Shown here piece after piece: positions 3,946 through 56,088 of a stretch of DNA of 64,000 bases. A program made the position numbers and the translations under genes. The notes beneath the pieces were generated by a model, which saw nothing but the letters and a program-made list of their open reading frames with translations, was not told the DNA's origin and did not search any database. This DNA comes from Eledone cirrhosa (taxonomy: Eukaryota). The stretch's first letter is position 1. The number at the start of each line of letters is the position of its first letter. The stretch is from assembly GCA_964016885.1 (NCBI GenBank), contig OZ024747.1, positions 91,450,001-91,514,000 of the forward strand, written 5' to 3'.

Positions 3946-4469
3946 GGTGGCCCAGAATTCGCTTGTTAGTTATATTTCTTAACATGCTTATTTTATTGTT
4001 ATTGTGATTTAATTTATTATTTTACTTCTTAATATGTTTAGCAGGTTTCTTAATTTATATTTTCATTTCTTAATGTGACTCACAGGTTTTTCATTTATAA
4101 ATAATCTATAAATAATCAAGTGAGTCTGGCCCAAGCTGTATATGTGTGTGTGTGTAGCTGTGTGTGTATATACATTGAAATATAGTATGCGTTCAAACAG
4201 AAAAGTTAAAAATTATTAACTGGCGTGTTGAAAGATAGGGTGAGGGATAGTGCAAAAACGAAAGAAAAGATGAAAGAAAAACAGTGGGGGTTGCAGCATG
4301 AGGGAGGGGTATTGAATGAACTGGATTTGAAAAATTAGAAGAAAAGTAATAGGAAAAATAAAACATCATTGAAAAAATATGTCATATCTTATAAATATAT
4401 AAGCACAATATTAAATATAATTATGCATTTTATGAAGAAAATACAAAGGAAACTGTAGAATGATATATA

Positions 4470-5366
<897 letters not shown>

Positions 5367-5383
5367 TATATACATATATATAA

Positions 5384-5489
<106 letters not shown>

Positions 5490-6213
5490 ACCAATAGAAA
5501 ATATATCATGAGTTTGTAGTGCATGCAGCTGATTATGATGGCCGCGATTATTTATGTGGATCAATTGATGTAAATATAAAAACAGAACGCTGTACTGGCA
5601 ACTGAATAATATGGCAGCTATTCACTGAACTAAGGTTCCTATCACGAGGAGATTATTTCTCGTTTGATCTCTACTTAAAATATATAGTTATACATTGTCT
5701 TTGGATCCAAGCCTCTTGAAGGAGCTGTAGAGGTTCTAATCAATAACACACAGAAGCTACAAATAAACAAAGAATTAAAGAGGCTTTAATCAACACAGAA
5801 GTCACAGTTAAACAACTGATCATGGAACAGAGGTGCCTCTATGACTACTCCACGCATGCGTAATTCAGACGTTTGGACCAGTTATTGAGGAACACGGCGT
5901 TCGCTTTAGTTTTGCAGCATTTTTCTATTTGGAAACAGGGTGTTAATCCTGAAATATTATGTTAAAATATACTGGCTAAAAAAAAAATTAGTTTCTTTTG
6001 TTTTGTTTGTCATCCTTTGCCCTTTCAATATTTCTGCAGCATTGTACTGGCTTTCTGAAATACTTATCGATCAATTATGATATAATTCACAAAGCTTCAT
6101 ATTAAATATAGGCAAGTCCCTAGCAGGACTAAAAGGCTACATCCATGATGCTCATGCTTACGTATCAAGCGATGGCATTACTCGAAATCGAGTTGCAGCC
6201 ATCATATATATAA

Positions 6214-6293
<80 letters not shown>

Positions 6294-6295
6294 TA

Positions 6296-7094
6296 TAAAA
6301 ACAAATAACGAAACGAAATTAAATTTCGTTTCGTTTGTAACTCACTTTTGTATGACTGACGCTTAAACAATTAAGTTAAAAATGTACATCCACATATGTA
6401 TACTGAAATACTAGTATGCATATGAATACACACACGTATACATATGTAGATGTACCGTATGACTCTAAAAACCGGTTTGTCTGTGTGTTTACATACAGAA
6501 TAGCTGGACACTCACAGTAAAGTGACCAGTGAAAAACTCGGTACATCTACATATGTATACGTGTGTGTATTCATATGCATACTAGTATTTCAGTATACAT
6601 ATGTGGATGTACATTTTTAATTTAATTGTTTAAGCGTCAGTCATACAAAAGTGAGTTACAAACGAAACGAAATTTAATTTCGTTTCGTTATTTGTTTTTA
6701 TCGTCTCCGTTGAACCGGTACGTACTCACGCTCTATGCAAATTAGTCTGCCCACTACTAATTTTCATAGAAAAAGCATATAACGATATGTGCTTTTACGA
6801 TTCTCTAGAGAGGCCGGAAGATAGGTTAATATTGCTGATGAGATGTAACAACATCGAAACTAGTTCAATATTCCTTGTCTGGTTTTCTGGAGAATAGAGG
6901 AAAGGTGTTTCCTCAAAAACCAGTATGACTCTAAAAACCGGTTTGTCTGTGTGTTTACATACAGAATAGCTGGACACTCACAGTAAAGTGACCAGTGAAA
7001 AACTCGGTACATCTACATATGTATACGTGTGTGTATTCATATGCATACTAGTATTTCAGTATACATATGTGGATGTACATTTTTAACTTAATTG

Positions 7095-7096
<2 letters not shown>
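6296..7096 (+). mobile_element. Non-coding HHR-bearing retrozyme-like/PLE-terminal cassette: 466-nt unit repeated ~1.4x with 5' inverted arm
   Basis: 6457-6630 repeats at 6923-7096 (offset 466); 6296-6457 is the reverse complement of 6539-6700; flanked by (TA)n on both sides. Confidence 0.75.
6828..6872 (+). ncRNA. Minimal type I hammerhead ribozyme (canonical)
   Basis: AATATTG-CTGATGA-GATGT(aaca)ACATC-GAAA-CTAG-TT-CAATATT; all stems perfectly paired, palindromic ACTAGT stem III. Confidence 0.9.
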
Positions 7097-7186
<90 letters not shown>

Positions 7187-23239: not shown

Positions 23240-26200
23240 AGCGTGGTGATAATGCCACACAAGTGCCAAATGGAACGGCGCAACCACCGGAAACGGTGAA
23301 TCCACAGATGGCTATGTAACCATACATTCGCCAATCCTGGATAAGAGTGTTTAAATATCGAACCTAAACAGTTCGAATAACGGTGAAATGGAGACTAGAA
23401 CGTCATGTGACAGACTCTCACCCAACAGGTGCCGCCTGGCTCAGCAGCAGGAACCTGACTGTCAACCAAATACTGCTGGTGTTGGAGGAAGAAGAAGAAG
23501 AAGGAAAGGGGCCAGAACCAACTGGACGAAAGAATTGAATAGAACTGTTATGCAATGTTACCTGAAAAGTAACCCCAAGGAGAGGGGCTATAGGAGACGG
23601 ATGCATAACATCTGGAACGAGATTGGTCTATTTAAATTAGATGAACAAAAATTGGCCGGGCAGACTCGGGTAATAAGAACTAATGGGTGGATAAGCGAGC
23701 TGGAACTGGAGGAACTGAGCAGAGAGAATAGCTTGGAGATGGAGGGTGTAGTATGCCAGACAAACGAGCCAGTGGGAAATGAAGGTGTAGAGGTCGAGAG
23801 AACGGAGGAACCACCCGAAGCAGACAATGATCTGAACACTGAGATAAATAATACCTGGAACAGAGATACGGCCACTGAGGAGATGAATGCTGACGGGCTG
23901 GGACAAGATTCGGTTGACATCCTAAATTTAGTGGTAGATGAATTGAACAATGATAGCGGGAGACCTATGAACCTAAGATTTGTAGACAGGAAAAAGTTAA
24001 AAGAAACAACAGCTAAGGTAAATAAAGTCATCCCATACCTTGAGGCGAGGAGCCTTCACCAGTGCAACAATATCCTCAAAGCAACAGCAAATACGGTGAG
24101 GAAACTACTTGGTATAAAAGCGAGAGGAAACAACAGACAAGAAAGAGCAGAGCCTTGGTGGAAGAAACGACTAAGTGGTCAAATCAAGGAAATGAGAAAT
24201 GACATAGGAAAGCTTGAGTCACTACAGAATGGGACACTAAAAAACATAGGCACTAAAAATAGACTGGAAATAAAGTACAAAACTAGGAGGAAAAAGCTAA
24301 ATATTATCATAGAGGAACTGAAGCAACGCATTGTAGCAAAGAGTGCAAAAATCAGGCGATACGAGAACAGAGTCAGTCAGTATAAACAGAACCGCATGTT
24401 CGACAACAACCAGAAGATGCTGTTTGGACAGCTTGAGGGGAAAGAAAGAGGCAACGACTTGATCCCTGAGGCGGAACAAACTAAAACATTCTGGAGAGGA
24501 ATATGGGAACAGGATGTTAGACATAATAACCAGGCAGGGTGGATTGAGACAGTACAGAGGGAGATCGGTGAGCAGGCACACCAACAAACTGATTTGAGTA
24601 TCACAGTTGAAACTCTTAAGGGGCAGGCAAAAAAACTAACCAACTGGAAATCACCAGGCCCAGATGGTATGCAGCGGTATTGGATTAAAAATTTAACATC
24701 CCTCCACCCGAAACTGACGGCCATGTTCAATGACTGCTTGGTGTCGGGTGAGGTGCCAGAGTGGTTGACAAAAGGTACCACAGTTCTGATAATGAAAGAC
24801 CGAATCAAGGGTAATGATGTTACCAACTATAGACCTATCACATGTCTGTCCGTAATGTGGAAACTGTTGACGAGCATTGTGTCTGAGGAAATCTACCATC
24901 ACCTCCACACAAACAACTTGTTACCGGACGAACAGAAAGGATGCCGAAAGAAGTCACGTGGTACAAAGGACCAGTTACTTATTGATAAGATGGTAATGGG
25001 GAATTGCAGGAGGAGACACACTGATCTTGCCATGGGATGGATAGACTACAGAAAGGCATTTGACATGGTGCCTCACTCTTGGATCACCAAAAGCCTGGAG
25101 ATCTTCAAGGTGGCAGATAACATCAGACAGTTGCTGGGCAGGAGTATGGGGTCCTGGGAGACAGAGTTGACATCAACTGGAGAATCCTTGGGAAGCGTGA
25201 AGATCAAGAGAGGTATCTTCCAGGGAGATAGCCTGTCCCCTCTGTTGTTTGTCCTTGCCCTGATGCCCTTGACCATTATGCTGCGAAAAGTGAGAGCAGG
25301 ATACAAGTTGGGAAAGGGAGAGCTTACCATCAATCACCTCCTCTTGATGGACGATCTTAAGCTCTTCGGGAAGAGTGAGAAGGAGTTGGATGTGCTTGTT
25401 GACACTGTCCGTATTTTCAGCAGTGATATATGTATGCAGTTTGGTATTAGTAAGTGTGGAGTCATTGTGATGGGGAGGGGTAGGTTGAGCAGAAGTAACG
25501 GAATCCAGATACCAACAGGTGAGATGATAAAGGAAATTGACTCTGAGGAAGGATACAAGTATTTGGGCGTTCTGGAGGCTGATGGCATAAAGAACAAAAA
25601 AATGAAGGAATTGTTAAGAACTGAATACATTCGGAGAGTAAGGAGCGTATTGAAGTCACACCTGAACAGCAGAAATGCCATAAGCGCAGTAAATTCCCGA
25701 GCTGTGTCTATTATTAGGTACAGTGCGGGAACTCTGAGATGGAATGTTGCTGAACAAAAAGAAATGGATAGGAAGACTAGGAAGCTATTGACTATCTACA
25801 ACATGTTCCACAAGAGGAGTGATGTCGATAGACTCTACCTAAGGAGATCTGAGGGTGGAAGAGGTCTTATCAGCATAGAGGACTGTGTTCAGATGGAGAA
25901 AAACAACCTATACAAATACGTGACTGATAGTAAGGAGCCAATGCTCAGAACTGTACTGAAGGAGGGGACAGTAGGCCAGGGGATGTCCAAGGAGAAAGAG
26001 CAGCCTTCAGGGAAAATCCCTTCATAGTACCTTCTTTGAGAAAACTGAATTTAGAGATCCACAGACATGGAACTGGTTGAGAAGAGGAGACCTAAAAAAG
26101 GCTACAGAAGGAATGTTAATGGCTGCGCAGGAGCAGGCCCTCAAAACGAAGTGGTTGAAACACCATATTTACAAGGAGGAGGCTAGCCCACTGTGCAGGA

Positions 26201-27758: not shown

Positions 27759-29042
27759 ATGTACTACCCATCAAATACATCGAATACAGAACAGACATAT
27801 ATCAACTGGAAAAAGAAACATCCCGAAAAAAGAGGCTATATTGACAGCAACAAACTAGCCAATATACGAAGAAATATTGTAAGAAAAAAGTTACTAACTG
27901 ATATAGAAATTGATCAGATCAAGCTATTAGCACAAAGTCAGCGAAGGGAAAATGAAACATGTGTCAGTGAAAACGAGGTAAACTGTAACACTTCGAATCC
28001 CAGGGTTGGGGCGGAATCACTGGCAACAGAAAAAATTAAAGAAAGGATCGAAAAAGTGGAGGGAGTGCATGCCCAGGATGAAACTCCAAATGAAAATAAT
28101 GAGATCGTAAATGATAAAGAAATGAATGAGAATGAACTTGCCAACTTGAAGGATGAAATTATGATCGAATGGATGAAAATGAAAGAATCTGACATGGGGC
28201 AACGAGACACCCTCCCTAAGATCCAGAACTCCAAACAGAACCAAAAGATAATACACAAGACTAACATAATTCTCAAAAACATTATCATCACAAACAAACT
28301 AAACATTACTGATTTAAATCATCTCTATTATGCATCGGCTAAAGTCACCACTCACTTATGTGGAGTGAAGATGAAAAAACAAAGGAATTCCCACAAGAAA
28401 TCTACTTGGCAAGAGAACATCAATCGCCAAATAAACCTTCTCCGATCTGACATAGAAATTTTAACAAACTATAAAGTAGGTGAACATGTTAAACAAACTA
28501 AACTTAGAAAATTGAAAAAAAAGTATAGTATAAAATCAACATGTGACATAGACATGCTGATAGAAATAATCAAGCAAAAAGTGTCGGCCAAAGCTGCTCG
28601 TATAAGGCGCTTTGAAATACGATCTAGATTCTATAAGGACAATAATATCTTCAAAAACAACCAAAGAAACTTCTACAGAAAAATTGGTAAGTCAACAATA
28701 ACTGCTAAATCAATACCACCCAAGGAGGAAGTGCAAGAATTCTGGGAAAAGATCTGGGCCGAAGAAAAAGTTCATAACATACATGCCCCATGGATAGACA
28801 GACAAATGAAAGATACAGCTCACCTTGAGGAACAAACATGGGAAAATATAACAGTTGAACAGTTGCGCTTGGCTCTAAGAAAAACCAGCAAATGGAAATC
28901 CCCAGGAAAAGACAAAATACAAAACTTTTGGATAAATGCCTTCACAGAGTCTCATGAGCTGTTAGCCCAACTTTACAATGAAATAGTTAAGGAGCCAGAA
29001 AAGATACCTTCATGGCATTACATTCCTGCTTCCGAAGAATGA
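27759..29042 (+). CDS. R4/Dong ORF N-terminal segment (frameshifted; begins ~27499)
   Basis: Parallels element 1: KLANIRRNI, IKQKVSAKAARIRRF, FWEKIW, WKSPGKDKIQNFW. Confidence 0.82.
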   Translation: MYYPSNTSNTEQTYINWKKKHPEKRGYIDSNKLANIRRNIVRKKLLTDIEIDQIKLLAQSQRRENETCVSENEVNCNTSNPRVGAESLATEKIKERIEKVEGVHAQDETPNENNEIVNDKEMNENELANLKDEIMIEWMKMKESDMGQRDTLPKIQNSKQNQKIIHKTNIILKNIIITNKLNITDLNHLYYASAKVTTHLCGVKMKKQRNSHKKSTWQENINRQINLLRSDIEILTNYKVGEHVKQTKLRKLKKKYSIKSTCDIDMLIEIIKQKVSAKAARIRRFEIRSRFYKDNNIFKNNQRNFYRKIGKSTITAKSIPPKEEVQEFWEKIWAEEKVHNIHAPWIDRQMKDTAHLEEQTWENITVEQLRLALRKTSKWKSPGKDKIQNFWINAFTESHELLAQLYNEIVKEPEKIPSWHYIPASEE

Positions 29043-29082
29043 TGAGACAAACAATCCCAAAAATTACAGACCGATAACTTGC

Positions 29083-31137
29083 TTGACCACAATGTATAAA
29101 ATTTTAACATCAGTCCTAACTGAATACACATATGACCACCTGATAACAAATGACCTATTTCCCATTGAGCAGAAAGGGTGTAAACGAGGCTCATATGGCT
29201 GTAAGGATCAGCTTCTGGTTAACAAAATGATACTGGAAGATTGTCATAATAGACACAAAAATCTATCGATTGCTTGGATAGATTATAAAAAAGCATTTGA
29301 TAGTTTGCCACACAGTTGGATTGAAAAATGTTTAGAGATTTTCAAAGTATCCCCCGTTGTCAGGAGGTTTTTGTCATTCAGTATGAAGACATGGAAAACG
29401 ACACTCCTTTTGAATAGTGAAACAAAATCACTGGAAGCTGGAGAAGTTAATATTAAGTGTGGAATTTTTCAGGGTGACTCTTTATCACCGCTTTTATTCT
29501 GCATCGCACTTATACCATTAAGTAAAATGCTCAATGAAACAAAACATGGATATAAAGTCTATGACAAAACCATTAATCACCTGTTCTACATGGATGACCT
29601 GAAACTATTTTCAAAAAATGATGAACAATTGCAAGGGCTATTATCCACTGTGAAGCAGTTCAGTGATGACATTAAAATGGAGTTTGGACTAGATAAATGC
29701 GCCAAAGCAACGTTCACCAGAGGAAAGCTGCTGAAGAGTTCAGACATTAATCTTGATCGGGGGAACGTGATAAGAGAACTTGATCAAGAAAAAACTTACA
29801 AATATCTAGGTGTTTGTGAAGGAGACGGAATCAAGCACTCGACAATGAGGGAAAGGATAAGGAAGGAATGTTACCGCAGAGTGAGAGCAATCTTAAAAAC
29901 GGAATTGAATGCAAGGAATAGGATCGATGCCATAAACACGCTTGCCATACCAGTAGTAACCTACAGTTACAATGTCATCAACTGGTCAAGCACAGAGATC
30001 CGTAGGCTCGATACAAAAATTCGAAAATTCTTAACCATGCACAGAATGCATCACCCTAAAGCAAATATAGATAGAATATATCTCCCTAGGAAAGAAGGAG
30101 GACGTGGGTTAATCCAGTTAGACATTGCGTTGAAAACTGCAACAATTGGATTATCTACATATCTAAGGGAATCACATGATTGGATGATCAAACTCGTTTT
30201 GAAACACGAAAGCATCAAAAGATCATATTCCATTACAAAAGATGCACAAAGATACAGTAATGGACTACAAATTTCAGAAGTCCCATTTACTGGTGAAATG
30301 GAAAACACAGAAAAAGCAAAGCAGGTAAAAGTAACTGCAAAGAAAGAACTGCTACAGAAACTGGCTAAGAAATGGCAAGAAAAGCCTCTGTATGGAAAAT
30401 ACCCAGAGCGAGCTAACAATCCTGATGTTGACAAAACTTTAACCCATCAGTGGTTGGCATCCTCTGGACTGAAATCGGAGACTGAAGGACTGATTATATC
30501 TGCACAAGATCAGTGTCTGCCAACAAAAAATTACCAAGCCAACATAATAAAAAATGGGTGCAGCCCATTATGCCGTGTATGCAAAAAACAACCAGAGACC
30601 ATTGACCATATAATTTCAATGTGCAGTCCTATAGCTCCAACCGAATACCTAAACAGGCATGACAGAGCTGCACAATACATACATTGGATAATGTGTAAGC
30701 ATTTTGACCTGCCCCATCAAAAGAATTGGTGGGAGCATCAACCACCTCCCATACTTGAAAAAGATCACATCTCAATCTTGTGGAACTTTAGCATCCAAAC
30801 AGACCGAAAAATAGATGCAAACAGACCTGATATAATATTGAAAGACTTTCAAAAGAGGGTTTGTCTGCTAATTGATATGTCTGTTCCAATAGACAAGAAT
30901 GTATCTATAAAAACATTTGAAAAATTGAGCAAGTATAAGGACCTGGAGATAGAAATTGGAAAAATGTGGAAATTGAGAACTAAAACAATACCAGTGGTTG
31001 TAGGCGCTCTGGGAATGATACCTAAGGGGTCTAATGATTACATATCGCAAATCCCAGGAAACCCGCGTATAGGAGAAATACAAAAGATAGTACTAATGGG
31101 AACTGCCCATATACTAAGGAAGATTCTGTCAATATAA
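29083..31137 (+). CDS. R4/Dong ORF: RT + CCHC + PD-(D/E)XK restriction-like endonuclease
   Basis: EQKGC, WIDYKKAFD, GIFQGDSLSP, FYMDDLKL, CRVCKKQPETIDHIISMC, RHD, RPDIIL..LIDMSVP..EKLSKYKDL. Confidence 0.93.
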   Translation: MTTMYKILTSVLTEYTYDHLITNDLFPIEQKGCKRGSYGCKDQLLVNKMILEDCHNRHKNLSIAWIDYKKAFDSLPHSWIEKCLEIFKVSPVVRRFLSFSMKTWKTTLLLNSETKSLEAGEVNIKCGIFQGDSLSPLLFCIALIPLSKMLNETKHGYKVYDKTINHLFYMDDLKLFSKNDEQLQGLLSTVKQFSDDIKMEFGLDKCAKATFTRGKLLKSSDINLDRGNVIRELDQEKTYKYLGVCEGDGIKHSTMRERIRKECYRRVRAILKTELNARNRIDAINTLAIPVVTYSYNVINWSSTEIRRLDTKIRKFLTMHRMHHPKANIDRIYLPRKEGGRGLIQLDIALKTATIGLSTYLRESHDWMIKLVLKHESIKRSYSITKDAQRYSNGLQISEVPFTGEMENTEKAKQVKVTAKKELLQKLAKKWQEKPLYGKYPERANNPDVDKTLTHQWLASSGLKSETEGLIISAQDQCLPTKNYQANIIKNGCSPLCRVCKKQPETIDHIISMCSPIAPTEYLNRHDRAAQYIHWIMCKHFDLPHQKNWWEHQPPPILEKDHISILWNFSIQTDRKIDANRPDIILKDFQKRVCLLIDMSVPIDKNVSIKTFEKLSKYKDLEIEIGKMWKLRTKTIPVVVGALGMIPKGSNDYISQIPGNPRIGEIQKIVLMGTAHILRKILSI

Positions 31138-49002: not shown

Positions 49003-49447
49003 CACCTGTCTATCCATCTATCTGTCTATCCATCTACCTGTCTATCCATCTACCTGTCTATCCATCTAACTGTCTATCTATCTAACTGTCTATCCATCTA
49101 CCTGTCTATCCATCTACCTGTCTATCCATCTATCTGTCTATCCATCTACCTGTCTATCCATCTATCTGTCTATCCATCTACCTGTCTATCCATCTAACTG
49201 TCTATCTATCTAACTGTCTATCCATCTACCTGTCTATCCATCTACCTGTCTATCCATCTATCTGTCTATCCATCTACCTGTCTATCCATCTATCTGTCTA
49301 TCCATCTACCTGTCTATCCATCTAACTGTCTATCTATCTAACTGTCTATCCATCTACCTGTCTATCCATCTACCTGTCTATCCATCTATCTGTCTATCCA
49401 TCTACCTGTCTATCCATCTAACTGTCTATCTATCTATCTATCTATCT
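49003..49447. repeat. 16-bp minisatellite (ATCCATCTACCTGTCT)n derived from (ATCT)n
   Basis: Direct reading. Confidence 0.92.
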
Positions 49448-49649: not shown

Positions 49650-51486
49650 ATGGCGGAAAAGATGGCAGACATGTCTGCCATTAGCTCTGCCACGCCCCCC
49701 AAGTCTGAAGAACAAAAAATAATTACAACAAAATTAGACATTGAAACAAACAAACAAAATGAAAAAACAAATGTTAAGGAAAATGAGCAAACAGAAAACA
49801 AACAAACAGAAAATAATACAAATAACGACAGGGCAACTTTCGCCCAGAAAACAAAGCAATCCATTACATACACACCAATTGACCTAACTGCCGCCAGAGA
49901 AAAACTGGCCGAAGCAAAGAAACATATTGTTTTGGGGGAGAACGGAATGTTTTCCATTAACTCCCCCCCAGAATTCAAGAAAGCCAGAGCAGAAAACACA
50001 GTTATATACAGAACTATACTGAACCAGACAAGAAAGCCAGCACAGCCCAGCCAAATGGAAATAGAGTTAGTCCTAAAAGACTATATGAAGAATATTCTCT
50101 TCATACGAAAGGACCGACTCTATGGCAGCATTTCGGTCCTAACAAGAGACAAAGAAACGGCGGAGAAGCTTTCCCTAAGCCCACTCTCGTCGACAACATA
50201 TAGCTTCTATCCCTCCTACATGGGTAGAAGAACACAGAGAGTAAAAGTAAAAACAATGCTGCCCACAATGGACTTCTGGTGGGCTATTGCTGGCTTCATT
50301 GATATGGGCGAAGACACTATGCTGTCAATGGGGAAGGCAACTGGAGATGCGTTCCTGGGAATGGGCCTCGACATACTAGTCCAAATGAGGCCCGAAAGAA
50401 TAGCACAAATCCCGGATCGCATCTGGCTGGATGACCTTACCCCAATAGACATAATTGTAGAGGGGAGAAGACCAGCATGCTATTTATGCATGGAAAGGGG
50501 ACACGTTAAGGCTAACTGCCCGAAACGTATCCCCCAAAAAGGACTATTGCCCACACCCACCACAAACAGTACACCAGCACCACCCACCTCCAAAAATACA
50601 CTAATACCACACACAGCAAACAAAATACAGACACCACCAACCACAAACACAACACAAACATCACCACCACCAGCACCAAACACAAGCACGACACAAAAAT
50701 CACCACCACCAACCACAACACAAACATCACCACCACCATCACCAACCACAAGCACGACACAAACATTACCACCACCACCACCACAAAACCCATTCCAAAC
50801 AAATAATAAAAAAAACAGTAACAAATCTACCCCTCCCGCAAAAAAAAAAACAACCACACAACACGTCCCTCCCACCTAGCGCTGAAGAGTTTCCCCCAAC
50901 TTCTGAAGAAGAAGGAGGAGAAGCCTTCAGACAAGTTAAAAGAAAAAAAAGAAAACACACACCCAGCACACCACAAATAACCCACACACAAACACCAACT
51001 CCAATCAAAAACACCCCACCCTCAACAAACAAAAATAAATCTGCGCCTCCCCTCTCCGAAACATTGACAGCATCACAAAAAAAGACGTTGCAATACACAT
51101 ATATAAATAAAGAAAACAAAAAACTGGTTAAATTAATAAACAATAACCCTATGGTGCAGACCGAAGGGCCAAACTTTATCTCAACAGAGAACTTCACCCA
51201 TTTAAAAATGATAAAGGTCCCTCTGGACCTTTATCGTTCCTTAAAAGAACAATTTAGACGGGACGTGAGCCCCCCCTGTTTAAAACCGTTGAATCGCGTC
51301 CTCTTGAAAGATTTCCCCATAACCGCCCCTCTCCCTGACACAACTCCAAATACCCCAACCCCACCACACACGTGTACCCCCACACCACCACAAAACATCC
51401 CTCCACCCAACACACCTGATGCCATGGAAATTACGCAACCCGGAGAGGTAAGTGCTTTTCTTTCTTCACTTTCAACACCAAAATAG
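49650..51486 (+). CDS. Tx1 ORF1 (gag-like, CX2CX4HX4C knuckle, Pro/Thr-rich); one frameshift in the A-run near 50845
   Basis: ACYLCMERGHVKANC; ORF 49623..50879, then the frame of 51064..51486 reads open from ~50881 (AEEFPPTSEEEGGEAFRQVKRKKRK). Confidence 0.8.
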
Positions 51487-51491
51487 ATCAA

Positions 51492-52895
51492 TTGAGAGTT
51501 GGCTGTTTGAACGCGCGTGGCCTGAGCTCAGCTTGGAAGCAAGCAAAGCTTCTAAGTGACCTCAGGTCACAAAGTATAGATGTGATGGTTGTTTGCGAGA
51601 GTCGGATCAGCAGCGTGAGACAGCTGGCGCCCGCCTTCGATGACTTTGAGATGCACGCATCTCTCTGTCAACCCGGAGGCGGGGGGGGGGGGGGAGTTGC
51701 CGTACTGCTGGATAAACGTCTGACTCTCGACGTACAGATTGTTCACTCGGACCCGGGGGGTCGATTACTGGTGCTGGACGTCGGAGGTGGTGAAGGCGGG
51801 GCTTTCAGACTGGTCGGTCTTTATGCTCCCTTCGGGGCGGAGAGAGCCGACTTCTTCCAACGTCTGGAGACTTTTCTAGGAACGTCGCGTTCCCTGCTTT
51901 TAGTGGGGGACTGGAATGGAATCCTAGATGCGCGTTGGGACTATGCAGGGGCATGTCCCGATAGAGGGGGGTGTAGCAGCCTCAAGGGGTTACTCGATCG
52001 ATTCGACCTGGTCGATAGATTTCGACTAGATTGTCCAACTGCGCCAACCTGGACCTGGGCAAACCGCAGTGGACAATCTAGATCGTACCTAGATAGGTTT
52101 TTGGTTAGGAGTAAGGATAGGGACGTATTTAGTTGTCCAGAACTGATCATGGTTGGCTATTCAGATCACAAATTAGTGACCTGCGTGGTCAACCTTGATA
52201 GAACGCATAGACAGGGTCCCGGTTACTGGAAGATGAACTTGTCCTTACTGACAAAGAAAGATTACAGAAACCGGATTAGTAGCTTAGTTAAGATGCGGTT
52301 GACGGGAGCGATCGTCAACAGTAGGTGGTGGATATCTCTAAAGAGAGAGATTAGAGTAAGTTCGATAGGTTACAGTAAGGAACTAGCGGCGAATAGAAAT
52401 AGGAGGGAAAGGGAGTTAACAGATAAACTAGAAGAGGCGATTAGGAGCGGAGACGTAGCCAGAGTGTTAGCGACGAGAACGGCATTGAGCCAGTTCTTTG
52501 ACGCGAAGCACGAAGGCTGCGTTGTCCGAAGTAAAATACGTGCTTTAGGAAACGAGGGGACCAAAGCTGTTAGCTGGGCCCGCGTGACAGAAGCCAAGAG
52601 TGGGATTAAATCCACCATTCGGTCTTTGCGAGACCAGGATGGACGGGTGATCCTTGAACCTGAGCGAATGTGCGAGACCTTTCAAAGCACTTTGCTCGAC
52701 TGTTCGGAGGTGGCGGGGGGCCGGACGGGGATGTGGACTTCGGTCCATACCTCGACGGTCTACCGCGTCTTTCGAGCGGCGAAGCGGAGTGCTGCGAAGG
52801 GCCAATCACAGCCACTGAAATCGGGGAAGCGCTCAGCCAATGCAGCAGACGCAAATCCCCGGGTCTCGATGGTCTACCATACGAACTTTATTTAG
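51492..52895 (+). CDS. Tx1 ORF2 N-terminal APE endonuclease (frameshift ~52680)
   Basis: RVGCLNARGL, VVCES, LVGDWN, SYLDRFL, YSDHKLV, GPGYWKMN. Confidence 0.92.
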   Translation: MRVGCLNARGLSSAWKQAKLLSDLRSQSIDVMVVCESRISSVRQLAPAFDDFEMHASLCQPGGGGGGGVAVLLDKRLTLDVQIVHSDPGGRLLVLDVGGGEGGAFRLVGLYAPFGAERADFFQRLETFLGTSRSLLLVGDWNGILDARWDYAGACPDRGGCSSLKGLLDRFDLVDRFRLDCPTAPTWTWANRSGQSRSYLDRFLVRSKDRDVFSCPELIMVGYSDHKLVTCVVNLDRTHRQGPGYWKMNLSLLTKKDYRNRISSLVKMRLTGAIVNSRWWISLKREIRVSSIGYSKELAANRNRRERELTDKLEEAIRSGDVARVLATRTALSQFFDAKHEGCVVRSKIRALGNEGTKAVSWARVTEAKSGIKSTIRSLRDQDGRVILEPERMCETFQSTLLDCSEVAGGRTGMWTSVHTSTVYRVFRAAKRSAAKGQSQPLKSGKRSANAADANPRVSMVYHTNFI

Positions 52896-54925
52896 CTATG
52901 CCGGTCTTGTTCTCCGAACTCCTCGAGGCTGTCTATTGCAACTGGCAACAGAACGGGAGAATTCCCTGTTCTGTGACCAAGGGCGTGGTCACGCTAGTGA
53001 GGAAGGACGAGAGCAAGGGGGACGACTTAAGTAACTTTAGGCCCATAACTCTGCTGAATGCAGAGTTACAGATTTTGGCCAAGGTGTTGGCGAAGAGGTT
53101 GGCGCTTGTGGTGGGTGGTTTGGTGGGAGACGCGCAGACATGCGCTATCCCGTCCAGGTCCATTCACGACAACCTCCACCTCATGCGATACATCATAGAG
53201 AGGGTTGGCTACGAACCCGGCTTTGGTGGGGCCCTGATCAACTTGGATCAATGTAAGGCGTTCGATAGGGTCGACCATGGTTACCTGGATGCGGTGCTAG
53301 CGGCGGCGGGCTTCGGACCCGTTTTCAGGGGCTGGATTTCTGCCATGCACAGTGGCAACATCTACTCTAGGATTAAAGTAAACGGCTACCTCTCGGAGCC
53401 GTTTCAAATCACCCGATCCATCAGACAGGGGTGCCCCCTCTCCTCCCTTCTGTACGTATTGACTCTCGAGCCACTGCTGCGGAAGTTGGAGTTGCTGCGG
53501 GGCATACCCCTGGAACCGGGATTGCACAAAGCGGTCTCGGCCTATGCCGACGACGTAACAGTAATGGTGGCGGACGCCTCGGAAATCGGGGCGATCGCCA
53601 CCCTACTGGAGGAATACGAAAGGCTGACGGGGGCTAAGCTGAACCAGGACAAGTCAGTCGGTTTGCAACTCGGAACGTGGAGGGGCAAACCGATGCCGTT
53701 AGACGGTGTCGTCGGGCGGTGGACGGAGGGCCCGGTGAAGCTGCTCGGGGTCTGGTTCGGACCGGACCTCCAGGTGGAGAAGAATTGGGGCGAGGTGACG
53801 AGCAGGGTGTTTGCGCTGACCCAGAAGTGGGCCAAGTGCAAACTATCACTGAAAGGTCGGGCGGAGGTGACGAACGCTTACATAGCGTCCGTCATCTACT
53901 ACCGCCTGACCGTCGTGCCTTGCCCCAAGGAAAAGCACACCATCATGGAACGCATGCTCTTCCAGTTCCTCTGGAAGAAGCGGCCTCCCATGGTGAGGAG
54001 ATCCATCTGCTGCCAGCACCCTTCGAAAGGAGGGCTGGGTATGCCGTGGCTGTTGATGCGTAGGCACGCATTGAGGCTACGGCATCTACAGGTATTCCTC
54101 AACGGTCAGCCGGTGTGGGCCCCGTTTGTGAGGCGAGCCTTCCCACAGCTCGTCTCGCTCACCGAACTGCAATCCTGGGTGAAGCAAAGACCGAGAAAAC
54201 TGGGCAACTGGCACACTGAGTGTGCCCAGGCGCTCACGGCTATCTGGCAAGCGGACCCGACTGTCAGTGGAGAATCCACCTCGACATTCTATAGAGGGTT
54301 GGTGGCTAGCAGGGGCGACGACACCCTTGGAGAGTCGCTAGGCATGGAGGAGGACGAACTGGCCAGCCTGTTCGGTAGAACTTTCGGCCCGGGACCCATG
54401 GACAACTTCCAGAGGTCCCTAGCCTGGCAGTGTTATCGGGGGGCTCTGCCCGTTCGAGAAAAGCTCTACAGACACGGGCGCCCGGGCAGGGATCCCGCGA
54501 AAAAGATCTGTCCCAGATGCGTGCGCGACGAGGAAACCGTTGCGCATGCACTGGTACACTGCCCGGGCGTTGCCGATCTGTGGGGCTACGTCGAACGACT
54601 GCTGTCGCGTGTGGCGCCGATTCGATTAACCGCCGAGTCTGTGGTGAACATCAAGCCGCCTCCTCCCTTCAGAAATGAAGCAGAGGCGGTCTTTCTGTGC
54701 GTAATAGCCATGATGAAAGAGGTTGTGTGGTGGACGCGCCTGAAAGGTCTGAGGTCGGGTGACTTTCTCTCCGGCCATCACCTGGTTTACTTCTTCCGAT
54801 ACCACTTCGGAAGAAGAATCAGGATGGAGAGAGAAGTGCTTGGTCCCAGACAGTTTTATGAAAGGTGGGTGAAAGAAGCGAGAATGGCCCGTGTAAATGG
54901 GCCTTCTCTCTACATTGTTCTGTAG
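52670..54925 (+). CDS. Tx1 ORF2 reverse transcriptase + C-terminal zinc finger
   Basis: KSPGLDGLPYELY, NFRPITLLN, LDQCKAFDRVDH, RQGCPLS, AYADDV, CPRC...ETVAHALVHC. Confidence 0.94.
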   Translation: MRDLSKHFARLFGGGGGPDGDVDFGPYLDGLPRLSSGEAECCEGPITATEIGEALSQCSRRKSPGLDGLPYELYLAMPVLFSELLEAVYCNWQQNGRIPCSVTKGVVTLVRKDESKGDDLSNFRPITLLNAELQILAKVLAKRLALVVGGLVGDAQTCAIPSRSIHDNLHLMRYIIERVGYEPGFGGALINLDQCKAFDRVDHGYLDAVLAAAGFGPVFRGWISAMHSGNIYSRIKVNGYLSEPFQITRSIRQGCPLSSLLYVLTLEPLLRKLELLRGIPLEPGLHKAVSAYADDVTVMVADASEIGAIATLLEEYERLTGAKLNQDKSVGLQLGTWRGKPMPLDGVVGRWTEGPVKLLGVWFGPDLQVEKNWGEVTSRVFALTQKWAKCKLSLKGRAEVTNAYIASVIYYRLTVVPCPKEKHTIMERMLFQFLWKKRPPMVRRSICCQHPSKGGLGMPWLLMRRHALRLRHLQVFLNGQPVWAPFVRRAFPQLVSLTELQSWVKQRPRKLGNWHTECAQALTAIWQADPTVSGESTSTFYRGLVASRGDDTLGESLGMEEDELASLFGRTFGPGPMDNFQRSLAWQCYRGALPVREKLYRHGRPGRDPAKKICPRCVRDEETVAHALVHCPGVADLWGYVERLLSRVAPIRLTAESVVNIKPPPPFRNEAEAVFLCVIAMMKEVVWWTRLKGLRSGDFLSGHHLVYFFRYHFGRRIRMEREVLGPRQFYERWVKEARMARVNGPSLYIVL

Positions 54926-55158
54926 GTGAAGAAGTGAAGAGGAAAGGGGGAGCGCCTCCTCTCTGGGCTTCCCCCGCGAAAAGAGTTGCACACTTTTCGG
55001 GGGTATGTGCAATCCCCAACACGCCCCCTCCCTTTTGAGGACTTTTTATTGTTATATTATTATTGTTATTCCTCTTTTCTTTACTCGATTTATGTAAACT
55101 CCCCCACTGTGTAAATGTCCCCTTCTTTTGTGCCCTCGTGGCAAATAAATAGAAATTT

Positions 55159-56088
55159 ATCTATCTAACTGTCTATCCATCTACCTGTCTATCCATCTAC
55201 CTGTCTATCCATCTAATTGTCTATCCATCTACCTGTCTATCCATCTACCTGTCTATCCATCTAATTGTCTATCCATCTACCTGTCTATCCATCTACCTGT
55301 CTATACATCTAACTGTCTATCCATCTACCTGTCTATCCATCTACCTGTCTATCCATCTACCTGTCTATCCATCTAACTGTCTATCCATCTACCTGTCTAT
55401 CCATCTACCTGTCTATCCATCTACCTGTCTATCCATCTAACTGTCTATCTATCTAACTGTCTATCTATATAACTGTCTATCCATTTACCTGTCTATCCAT
55501 TTACCTGTCTATCCATCTACCTGTCTATCCATCTAATTGTCTATCCATCTACCTGTCTATCCATCTACCTATCTATCCATCTACCTATCTATCCATCTAC
55601 CTGTCTATCCATCTAACTGTCTATCCATCTACCTGTCTATCCATCTACCTGTCTATCCATCTAACTGTCTATCCATCTACCTGTCTATCTATATAACTGT
55701 CTATCCATCTAACTGTCTATCTATATAACTGTCTATCCATCTAAATGTCTATCCATCTACCTGTCTATCCATCTACCTGTCTATCCATCTAACTGTCTAT
55801 CCATCTACCTGTCTATCTATATAACTGTCTATCCATCTAACTGTCTATCTATATAACTGTCTATCCATCTAAATGTCTATCCATCTAATTGTCTATCCAT
55901 CTACCTGTCTATCTATATAACTGTCTATCCATCTACCTGTCTATCTATATAACTGTCTATCCATCTAACTGTCTATCTATATAACTGTCTATCCATCTAA
56001 CTGTCTATCTATATAACTGTCTATCCATCTAACTGTCTATCTATATAACTGTCTATCCATCTAAATGTCTATCCATCTATCTATCTAA
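55159..56088. repeat. 16-bp minisatellite with variant units forming 32-bp higher-order pattern
   Basis: ATCCATCTACCTGTCT grading into alternating ATCCATCTAACTGTCT / ATCTATATAACTGTCT. Confidence 0.92.

Follow-up and report, generated by a model that had tools for sequence, protein, structure and literature searches.

A two-armed hammerhead retrozyme insertion with Penelope-type ends in (TA)n in the genome of Eledone cirrhosa

What kind of element is the short, non-coding sequence at positions 6295-7095 of the window (the whole stretch of 64,000 nucleotides analysed, which belongs to a chromosome-scale contig of a 3.0-Gb genome), which enzyme placed it between two (TA)n tracts, and from what form of RNA was it copied? 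The best explanation, to which we would assign a probability of about 0.7, is that it is a short insertion of a retrozyme mobilised by a Penelope-like element (PLE), copied from a 466-nt monomer template by a Neptune-type enzyme. Mobilisation by a PLE is the firmest part of this reading and is very probable, while it is probable to a lesser degree that the main template was a circle or nicked monomer.

Two repeats define the anatomy of the element. A direct repeat (6457-6633 and 6923-7099) has an offset of exactly 466 nt and 99% identity, with a single mismatch in the common part, at 6621 versus 7087, and an inverted repeat of 163 nt (6295-6457 and 6539-6701) contains one mismatch. Tandem-repeat calls at 6204-6297 and 7095-7183 place (TA)n on both sides, with target tracts at 6204-6294 on the left and 7096-7183 on the right. 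If unit position 1 is the first base past the hammerhead cut, the element comprises an inverted arm of 0.35 unit on the minus strand (6295-6457, unit 302 to 140) and a direct arm of 1.37 units on the plus strand (6457-7095, unit 58 through 466 to 230), the two overlapping by 1 nt at 6457. The outer end of the inverted arm is the long start site and that of the direct arm the short one, and the copy is the outcome of two short runs, the one begun at the long site being 163 nt and the one begun at the short site 639 nt in length. The features reported in the first-pass annotation, namely the 466-nt offset, the inverted segment, the (TA)n, one hammerhead and the lack of an open reading frame (ORF), are all present on re-analysis.

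The single full unit (6458-6923, plus strand) has 35% GC and a fold far stronger than that of shuffled sequences (z -10.8 in linear form, -8.9 as a circle), in part owing to perfect hairpins. A long hairpin (6541-6612, plus strand) lies immediately 5' of the short start site, and a 13-bp hairpin (6661-6689) lies inside the "tail" of about 70 nt that separates the two fixed 3' ends (6630-6701, plus strand; unit 231-302). There is no ORF in the unit, and no reverse transcriptase (RT) plus GIY-YIG frame in particular; the longest stop-to-stop frame in a 4-unit concatemer of 35% GC is 80 aa.

Elsewhere in the window there is an internally deleted DNA transposon with 111-nt terminal inverted repeats and TA flanks (4464-5372), which we take to be Tc1/mariner-like. 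LINE-type frames with RVT_1 matches, unrelated to the retrozyme, are found at 23355-26027, 28987-31137 and 51420-54925, the last also having APE endonuclease and zf-RVT matches, and two related 16-nt tandem arrays (49004-49446 and 55158-56087) flank the LINE at 51-55 kb.

The hammerhead (6828-6872, plus strand) is the sole match to a type I pattern search of the 64-kb window. It is made up of stem I (6828-6834 with 6866-6872), CUGAUGA (6835-6841), stem II (6842-6855), GAAA (6856-6859) and a 2-bp helix III with a palindromic loop, followed by GUU, after which the cut is predicted between 6865 and 6866. The motif folds with a z of -2.7 relative to shuffles, and an Rfam scan of the element returned no match at the gathering threshold. 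Its initial description as a perfect hammerhead holds for the core, but not for position 6827, where the window has T and the 213 other unit copies covering this position have A. Stem II pairing is intact in 100 of 100 cores among those listed, and one lineage carries a stem II pair changed from A-U to U-A (47 units versus 284, none mismatched), a swap that is one inherited event rather than many. Both the unit and the swap also occur in contigs from four sequencing runs of unspecified kind (organisms A, B and C). A self-closing contig of 496 nt (X5; 466+30) was considered as evidence of a circle and dropped, as a tandem array gives the same closure.

With a palindromic helix III of 2 bp, such a hammerhead likely needs to act as a dimer; the short-helix-III form has been described as dimer-requiring (PMC4209133), and cofolding predicts that two unit copies are able to pair through helix III. 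Because the window copy has a single hammerhead with a 2-bp helix III, it cannot release a monomer alone. Nor does it have the two or more consecutive hammerhead-bearing units by which Li et al. (2026) recognise active copies, which other loci of the family do have. The copy in the window is, in itself, an unremarkable dead-end insertion.

The family to which it belongs is, judged by sequence, a young, non-coding, hammerhead-bearing non-LTR retrozyme in (TA)n. There are at least 249 unit matches genome-wide at 96-100% identity, with 39 of 123 candidates scored, and a whole-genome pattern count found 7,800 exact hammerhead cores against 0 for a control pattern. Junctions of the long end with (TA)n number 1,952, and those of the short end about 1,200 (597 on the forward strand, the reverse-strand figure of 1,653 including overlapping matches). 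The cores recur at 466-468-nt spacing, and one arm of the longest array observed consists of 31 units. One hammerhead per tandem unit, a non-coding, low-GC, structured monomer and forms ranging from dimers to large multimers are features that characterise retrozymes, and the earlier assignment to a non-LTR retrozyme family is upheld by copies that are numerous, non-coding, hammerhead-bearing and without an attached coding body. When sister families are included, related cores number 39,551, mostly from a sister family of about 65% identity. This sister retrozyme family (L099:7579-9901, L100:2890-3500 and L083:2690-3264) has units of roughly 420-510 nt with the same octamer, hammerhead and end anatomy, the hammerhead core being retained and the stems different. 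The family and its sisters thus constitute a sizeable and recently active part of the Eledone cirrhosa genome.

The octamer just mentioned, ATGCAAAT (6735-6742, plus strand), is a possible internal promoter element. In 22 of the first 30 superfamily loci a motif of the form ATGCAA(A/C)T precedes the core by 52-99 nt; the other loci are for the most part truncated or rearranged at this place. We assume this octamer to be of the kind found in snRNA-type promoters, a putative element here, and on its sequence the arrays are perhaps transcribed from it. An snRNA-type promoter has been reported for newt satellite 2, according to a sentence citing that work (PMC2220036). An octamer-less lineage has still spread to 7 loci: the cluster A336G/A340G/A341G destroys the octamer and is fixed in all units of one lineage (L208, L219-L225; 7 loci, 69 units, a 468-nt unit), where it resembles an editing scar. 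One of these loci, L225, begins at its 5' end with two units of a different type. There is no overall A>G excess, with 7 A>G versus 13 T>C among singletons and 5 versus 3 among array-fixed changes.

Retrozyme insertions consist of two arms joined 5'-to-5' (head-to-head), with both 3' ends facing outward into (TA)n. There are two fixed outer 3' ends, at unit ~302 (long) and unit ~228-233 (short), and each arm takes one of them. Unit similarity was the sole criterion for a set of 29 loci (28 and the window), of which 20 are two-armed with a long and a short end. The first 141 Mb of contig C1 contains 99 long and 63 short junctions, forming 30 pairs within 16 kb; long/short pairs facing outward account for 29 of 30, against 1.3 pairs expected by chance, and the exceptions on this contig are one long-long pair, which represents two separate insertions, and one short-short pair. 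Similarly, 45 of 51 two-armed insertions in the de-duplicated set of fetched loci combine a long with a short end, while five have one odd end, one has two short ends and none has two long ends. TA-rich DNA abuts 124 of 135 3' ends. The 139 5' ends are scattered, and the inner junctions mostly show an overlap of 0-4 nt or short filler. We see no surplus of 5' ends at the hammerhead cut (among 94 arms at least one unit long, 8 against 6.1 expected, p 0.26), and a correlation of arm lengths (rho 0.47) was set aside as biased by locus size and selection.

This layout differs from what was first supposed. Copies with different permutation points had been expected, but among the fetched loci 129 of 135 3' ends fall at the two fixed sites (69 long, 60 short, 6 other), a proportion biased by the many loci that were fetched by an end. 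The inverted piece is a second, independently primed arm. The combination of 5' truncation, an inverted 5' copy, a tail at one end and a (TA)n target is that of PLE insertions: in EN+ PLEs the 5' copy is inverted and a tail of 30-40 bp is often present at one end alone (Craig et al. 2021, PMC8557442), and in vitro a PLE cuts and extends both strands, with two adjacent internal RT starts bounding the tail (Frangieh et al. 2024, PMC11167929).

This genome has 10,596 GIY-YIG candidates, of which 50 loci were fetched. These include several PLE families in which RT is followed by CxxC and then GIY-YIG, and which have hammerheads with a palindromic helix III. Open RT plus GIY-YIG frames of 938 aa (L089:4809-7622) and 1,096 aa (L091:1775-5062) occur among them, the former between 1.07-kb direct pLTRs with degenerate hammerheads. 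We apply the label Neptune-type to the candidate helper on the basis of sequence, that is, a C-terminal GIY-YIG preceded by a CX2-5CxxC motif, a combination described for Neptune and Nematis (PMC8557442). Coding Neptune-type PLEs (L094, L098 and L100) likewise have two arms with one long and one short end in (TA)n, and in the PLE family found at L228, for which 30 loci were fetched, both ends are visible in four, all four of which follow the long/short grammar. With Penelope-type ends, (TA)n targets and a grammar common to the coding PLEs of this genome, the proposal in the first-pass annotation that a (TA)n-inserting PLE enzyme mobilises the unit gains support. A PLE carrying the unit's own sequence as a pLTR homologue was not found in the 50 loci, a small sample of the 10,596. 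Of 118 family loci, some of which overlap, 12 contain PLE protein matches.

The best pointer to a Neptune-type helper is a chimeric two-armed insertion at L228:2153-5889 (contig C1, about 41489650-41493390), with (TA)n on both sides. Here 2.7 retrozyme units with a long end face, head-to-head, a 39-nt piece of that retrozyme type, which joins, over a 1-nt microhomology, a 5'-truncated PLE of the L095 family, which ends at its own short site. The insertion thus follows the long-plus-short rule across two different RNAs. It suggests a helper of this type as a single case, one that a deletion between neighbouring insertions could mimic, and no further chimera was found in the 30 loci of the L228 PLE family with 1.5-kb flanks. 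Locus L202, where a unit abuts a PLE ORF fragment, was rejected as a chimera, having no PLE 3' end and no (TA)n on the PLE side.

Which RNA the enzyme copied can be approached through variation among units. The arms of one insertion usually have a common haplotype, their majority sequences being identical in 19 of 28 insertions compared with 9.7% of 756 cross pairs. Among 27 arrays of at least three full units, nine have no substitution among their full units, the units differ by 1.3 within arrays and 7.0 between them, and 16 distinct array-wide haplotypes are present. Identical full units extending over both inverted arms number 18 in L208, 14 in L037 and 16 in L055. The assembly contains nine copies of the L033 haplotype, which all belong to L033 and are spread over both of its arms. 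Of 334 joints at the cut site, 333 lack an indel. Two arms that start at the long site end at unit 1-2, and the only two clean subfamily switches among 100 arms (L225 and L058, small numbers) both fall in intervals that span the cut site. Uniform arms and clean cut-site joints favour a circular or nicked monomer as template; the ligated circle and the nicked monomer with paired ends are inseparable by sequence, because the circular fold pairs unit 1-30 with the 3' part of the unit.

Mosaic arrays, on the other hand, indicate a further contribution of multimers, template jumps or DNA exchange. Recurrent variants are present in only some units in 11 of 27 arrays, and the mosaics L206/L207 and L226, together with L218, which has one duplicated 4-unit block, did not arise from a single monomer circle. 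In the A>G-rich mosaic L226:2071-9493, markers remain linked across the cut in 15 of 15 cases, and the linkage is broken between unit 277 and 328, a break that lies near the long start site. In L047 and L044, unit variants recur with a period of 2 (3 in one L047 arm), which is compatible with dimer or trimer templates. Two of three private-haplotype tests failed: the L208 marker is found in 7 loci, including a 25-unit array, and the L217 marker in 13, which shows that there are long homogeneous arrays to serve as sources. For the rolling-circle origin first proposed for a permuted copy, a 1.4-unit copy is no proof by itself; such an origin may be read from the long homogeneous arrays elsewhere, yet mosaics exist.

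The same PLE machinery and start sites could instead have used an uncut linear multimer transcribed from an existing array, with the hammerhead playing a minor part in insertion. In vitro, uncleaved RNA is the dominant substrate of an anole PLE and hammerhead mutants leave insertion unchanged (PMC11167929); in our data, the plus arm of L040 resembles a copy of part of the unit series of its minus arm, linkage in L226 is unbroken across the cut, long homogeneous arrays are available as potential sources, and clean joints are what uncut RNA would give. However, the nine-copy haplotype confined to L033 calls for a monomer bottleneck or else for a source that the assembly lacks, the 16 array-wide haplotypes in 27 arrays fit poorly, and stem II covariation, arms that end at the cut and switches that bracket it suggest that cut RNA was used, all of which leads us to consider an uncut template unlikely.

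More doubtful still is that a PLE inserts just one or two units per arm and that the arrays later grow as satellite DNA by unequal exchange, a type of growth discussed by Li, Clavereau and Pollet 2026 (10.64898/2026.07.22.740005). The block duplication in L218, the adjacent common variants in L053 and the within-unit recombinants in L206/L207 are as expected of such exchange, but the 18, 14 and 16 identical units of L208, L037 and L055 would need near-instant expansion at many dispersed loci, with both arms expanded and the ends remaining exact, which makes it highly improbable as the general explanation. The idea that the unit is simply a pseudo-LTR that 5'-truncated insertions of a coding PLE have left behind is largely refuted, for although pLTRs too have fixed ends, a tail, an inverted 5' arm and a hammerhead (PMC8557442) and the search for a parent covered a small sample, the unit forms head-to-tail arrays of up to 31 copies without an ORF, 30 of 30 long-end loci lead into more unit only or stop, no coding body is attached to the unit copies, and PLE protein matches lie within 60 nt of units in just 2 of the 118 partly overlapping loci, the unit being a UTR in neither.

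Returning to the PLE-mobilised retrozyme with a monomer template, the cycle would begin with transcription of arrays, perhaps through the internal octamer promoter. The hammerhead would then cleave as a dimer to yield 466-nt monomers with paired ends, as nicked or ligated circles. A PLE enzyme would open a TA tract on both strands, and the DNA 3' ends so made would each prime reverse transcription at an internal site, unit ~302 or ~228-233, rather than at the cut end. By passing the cut site repeatedly, RT could build up to about 31 units, and it might sometimes jump to another RNA, after which the two cDNAs would be joined tip to tip by end joining. We also propose, tentatively and at somewhat less than even odds, that a dimeric Penelope-type enzyme primes both strands at two fixed RNA sites and rolls round the hammerhead-made circle, and that the two sites can load different RNAs, in which case L228 would capture retrozyme and helper in one event. 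Were this so, the genome would provide evidence that a telomerase-related RT carries out rolling-circle reverse transcription, and the helper of an animal retrozyme would be named.

In the cited papers, the copying enzyme of animal retrozymes and the circle as its template are proposed rather than demonstrated. The present family supplies precise start sites, the rule of one long and one short end, a candidate helper family that has young copies, and arrays that are very young, and with such start sites, helper and arrays the question becomes testable in the existing in vitro PLE assay.

Animal non-LTR retrozymes, their circles and PLEs as proposed helpers are already known (PMC7229834; 10.64898/2026.07.22.740005). 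Among titles and abstract openings in the literature, a scope outside which subscription papers and supplements lie, there were no two-armed retrozyme insertions and no retrozyme/PLE chimeras. Like the metazoan retrozymes of Cervera and de la Pena 2020 (PMC7229834), the Eledone family has non-coding tandem units with one type I hammerhead each, GC below 45%, thousands of copies and co-occurring PLEs, and it shares a short helix III with their axolotl motifs, which are cut as dimers; its 466-nt unit, however, exceeds their 170-400 nt. In that work circles were detected by northern blot and a PLE helper was only proposed, and the terms "inverted", "rolling" and "target site" are absent from its main text, whereas here the anatomy of the insertions is defined and the RNA circle is predicted.

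Our reading is concordant with that of Li, Clavereau and Pollet 2026, who regard animal retrozymes as non-autonomous PLE derivatives, and whose consensus lengths of 51-972 bp cover the 466-nt unit. Their evidence is co-occurrence and pLTR homology, the accessible portion of the main text being without analysis of ends, arms or chimeras; the Eledone family, unlike theirs, is without sequence homology to the PLEs sampled.

The closest resemblance is to the EN+ PLEs Neptune and Nematis (PMC8557442, PMC11167929, PMC4209133), with which the family shares 5' truncation, an inverted 5' copy, a tail at one end, a (TA)n preference, a hammerhead with palindromic helix III and two internal RT start sites. 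It differs from them in having no ORF, a tail of about 70 nt rather than 30-40, and multi-unit arms. Moreover, start-site use in vitro was equal between strands (PMC11167929), whereas the two arms of the retrozyme insertions almost always differ. Non-autonomous Chlamys PLEs such as MRC1 (PMC8557442) resemble their helpers at the 3' end and belong to a group mostly without canonical hammerheads, in which respects they are unlike the Eledone retrozyme; like it, they are non-coding, multicopy head-to-tail and PLE-mobilised.
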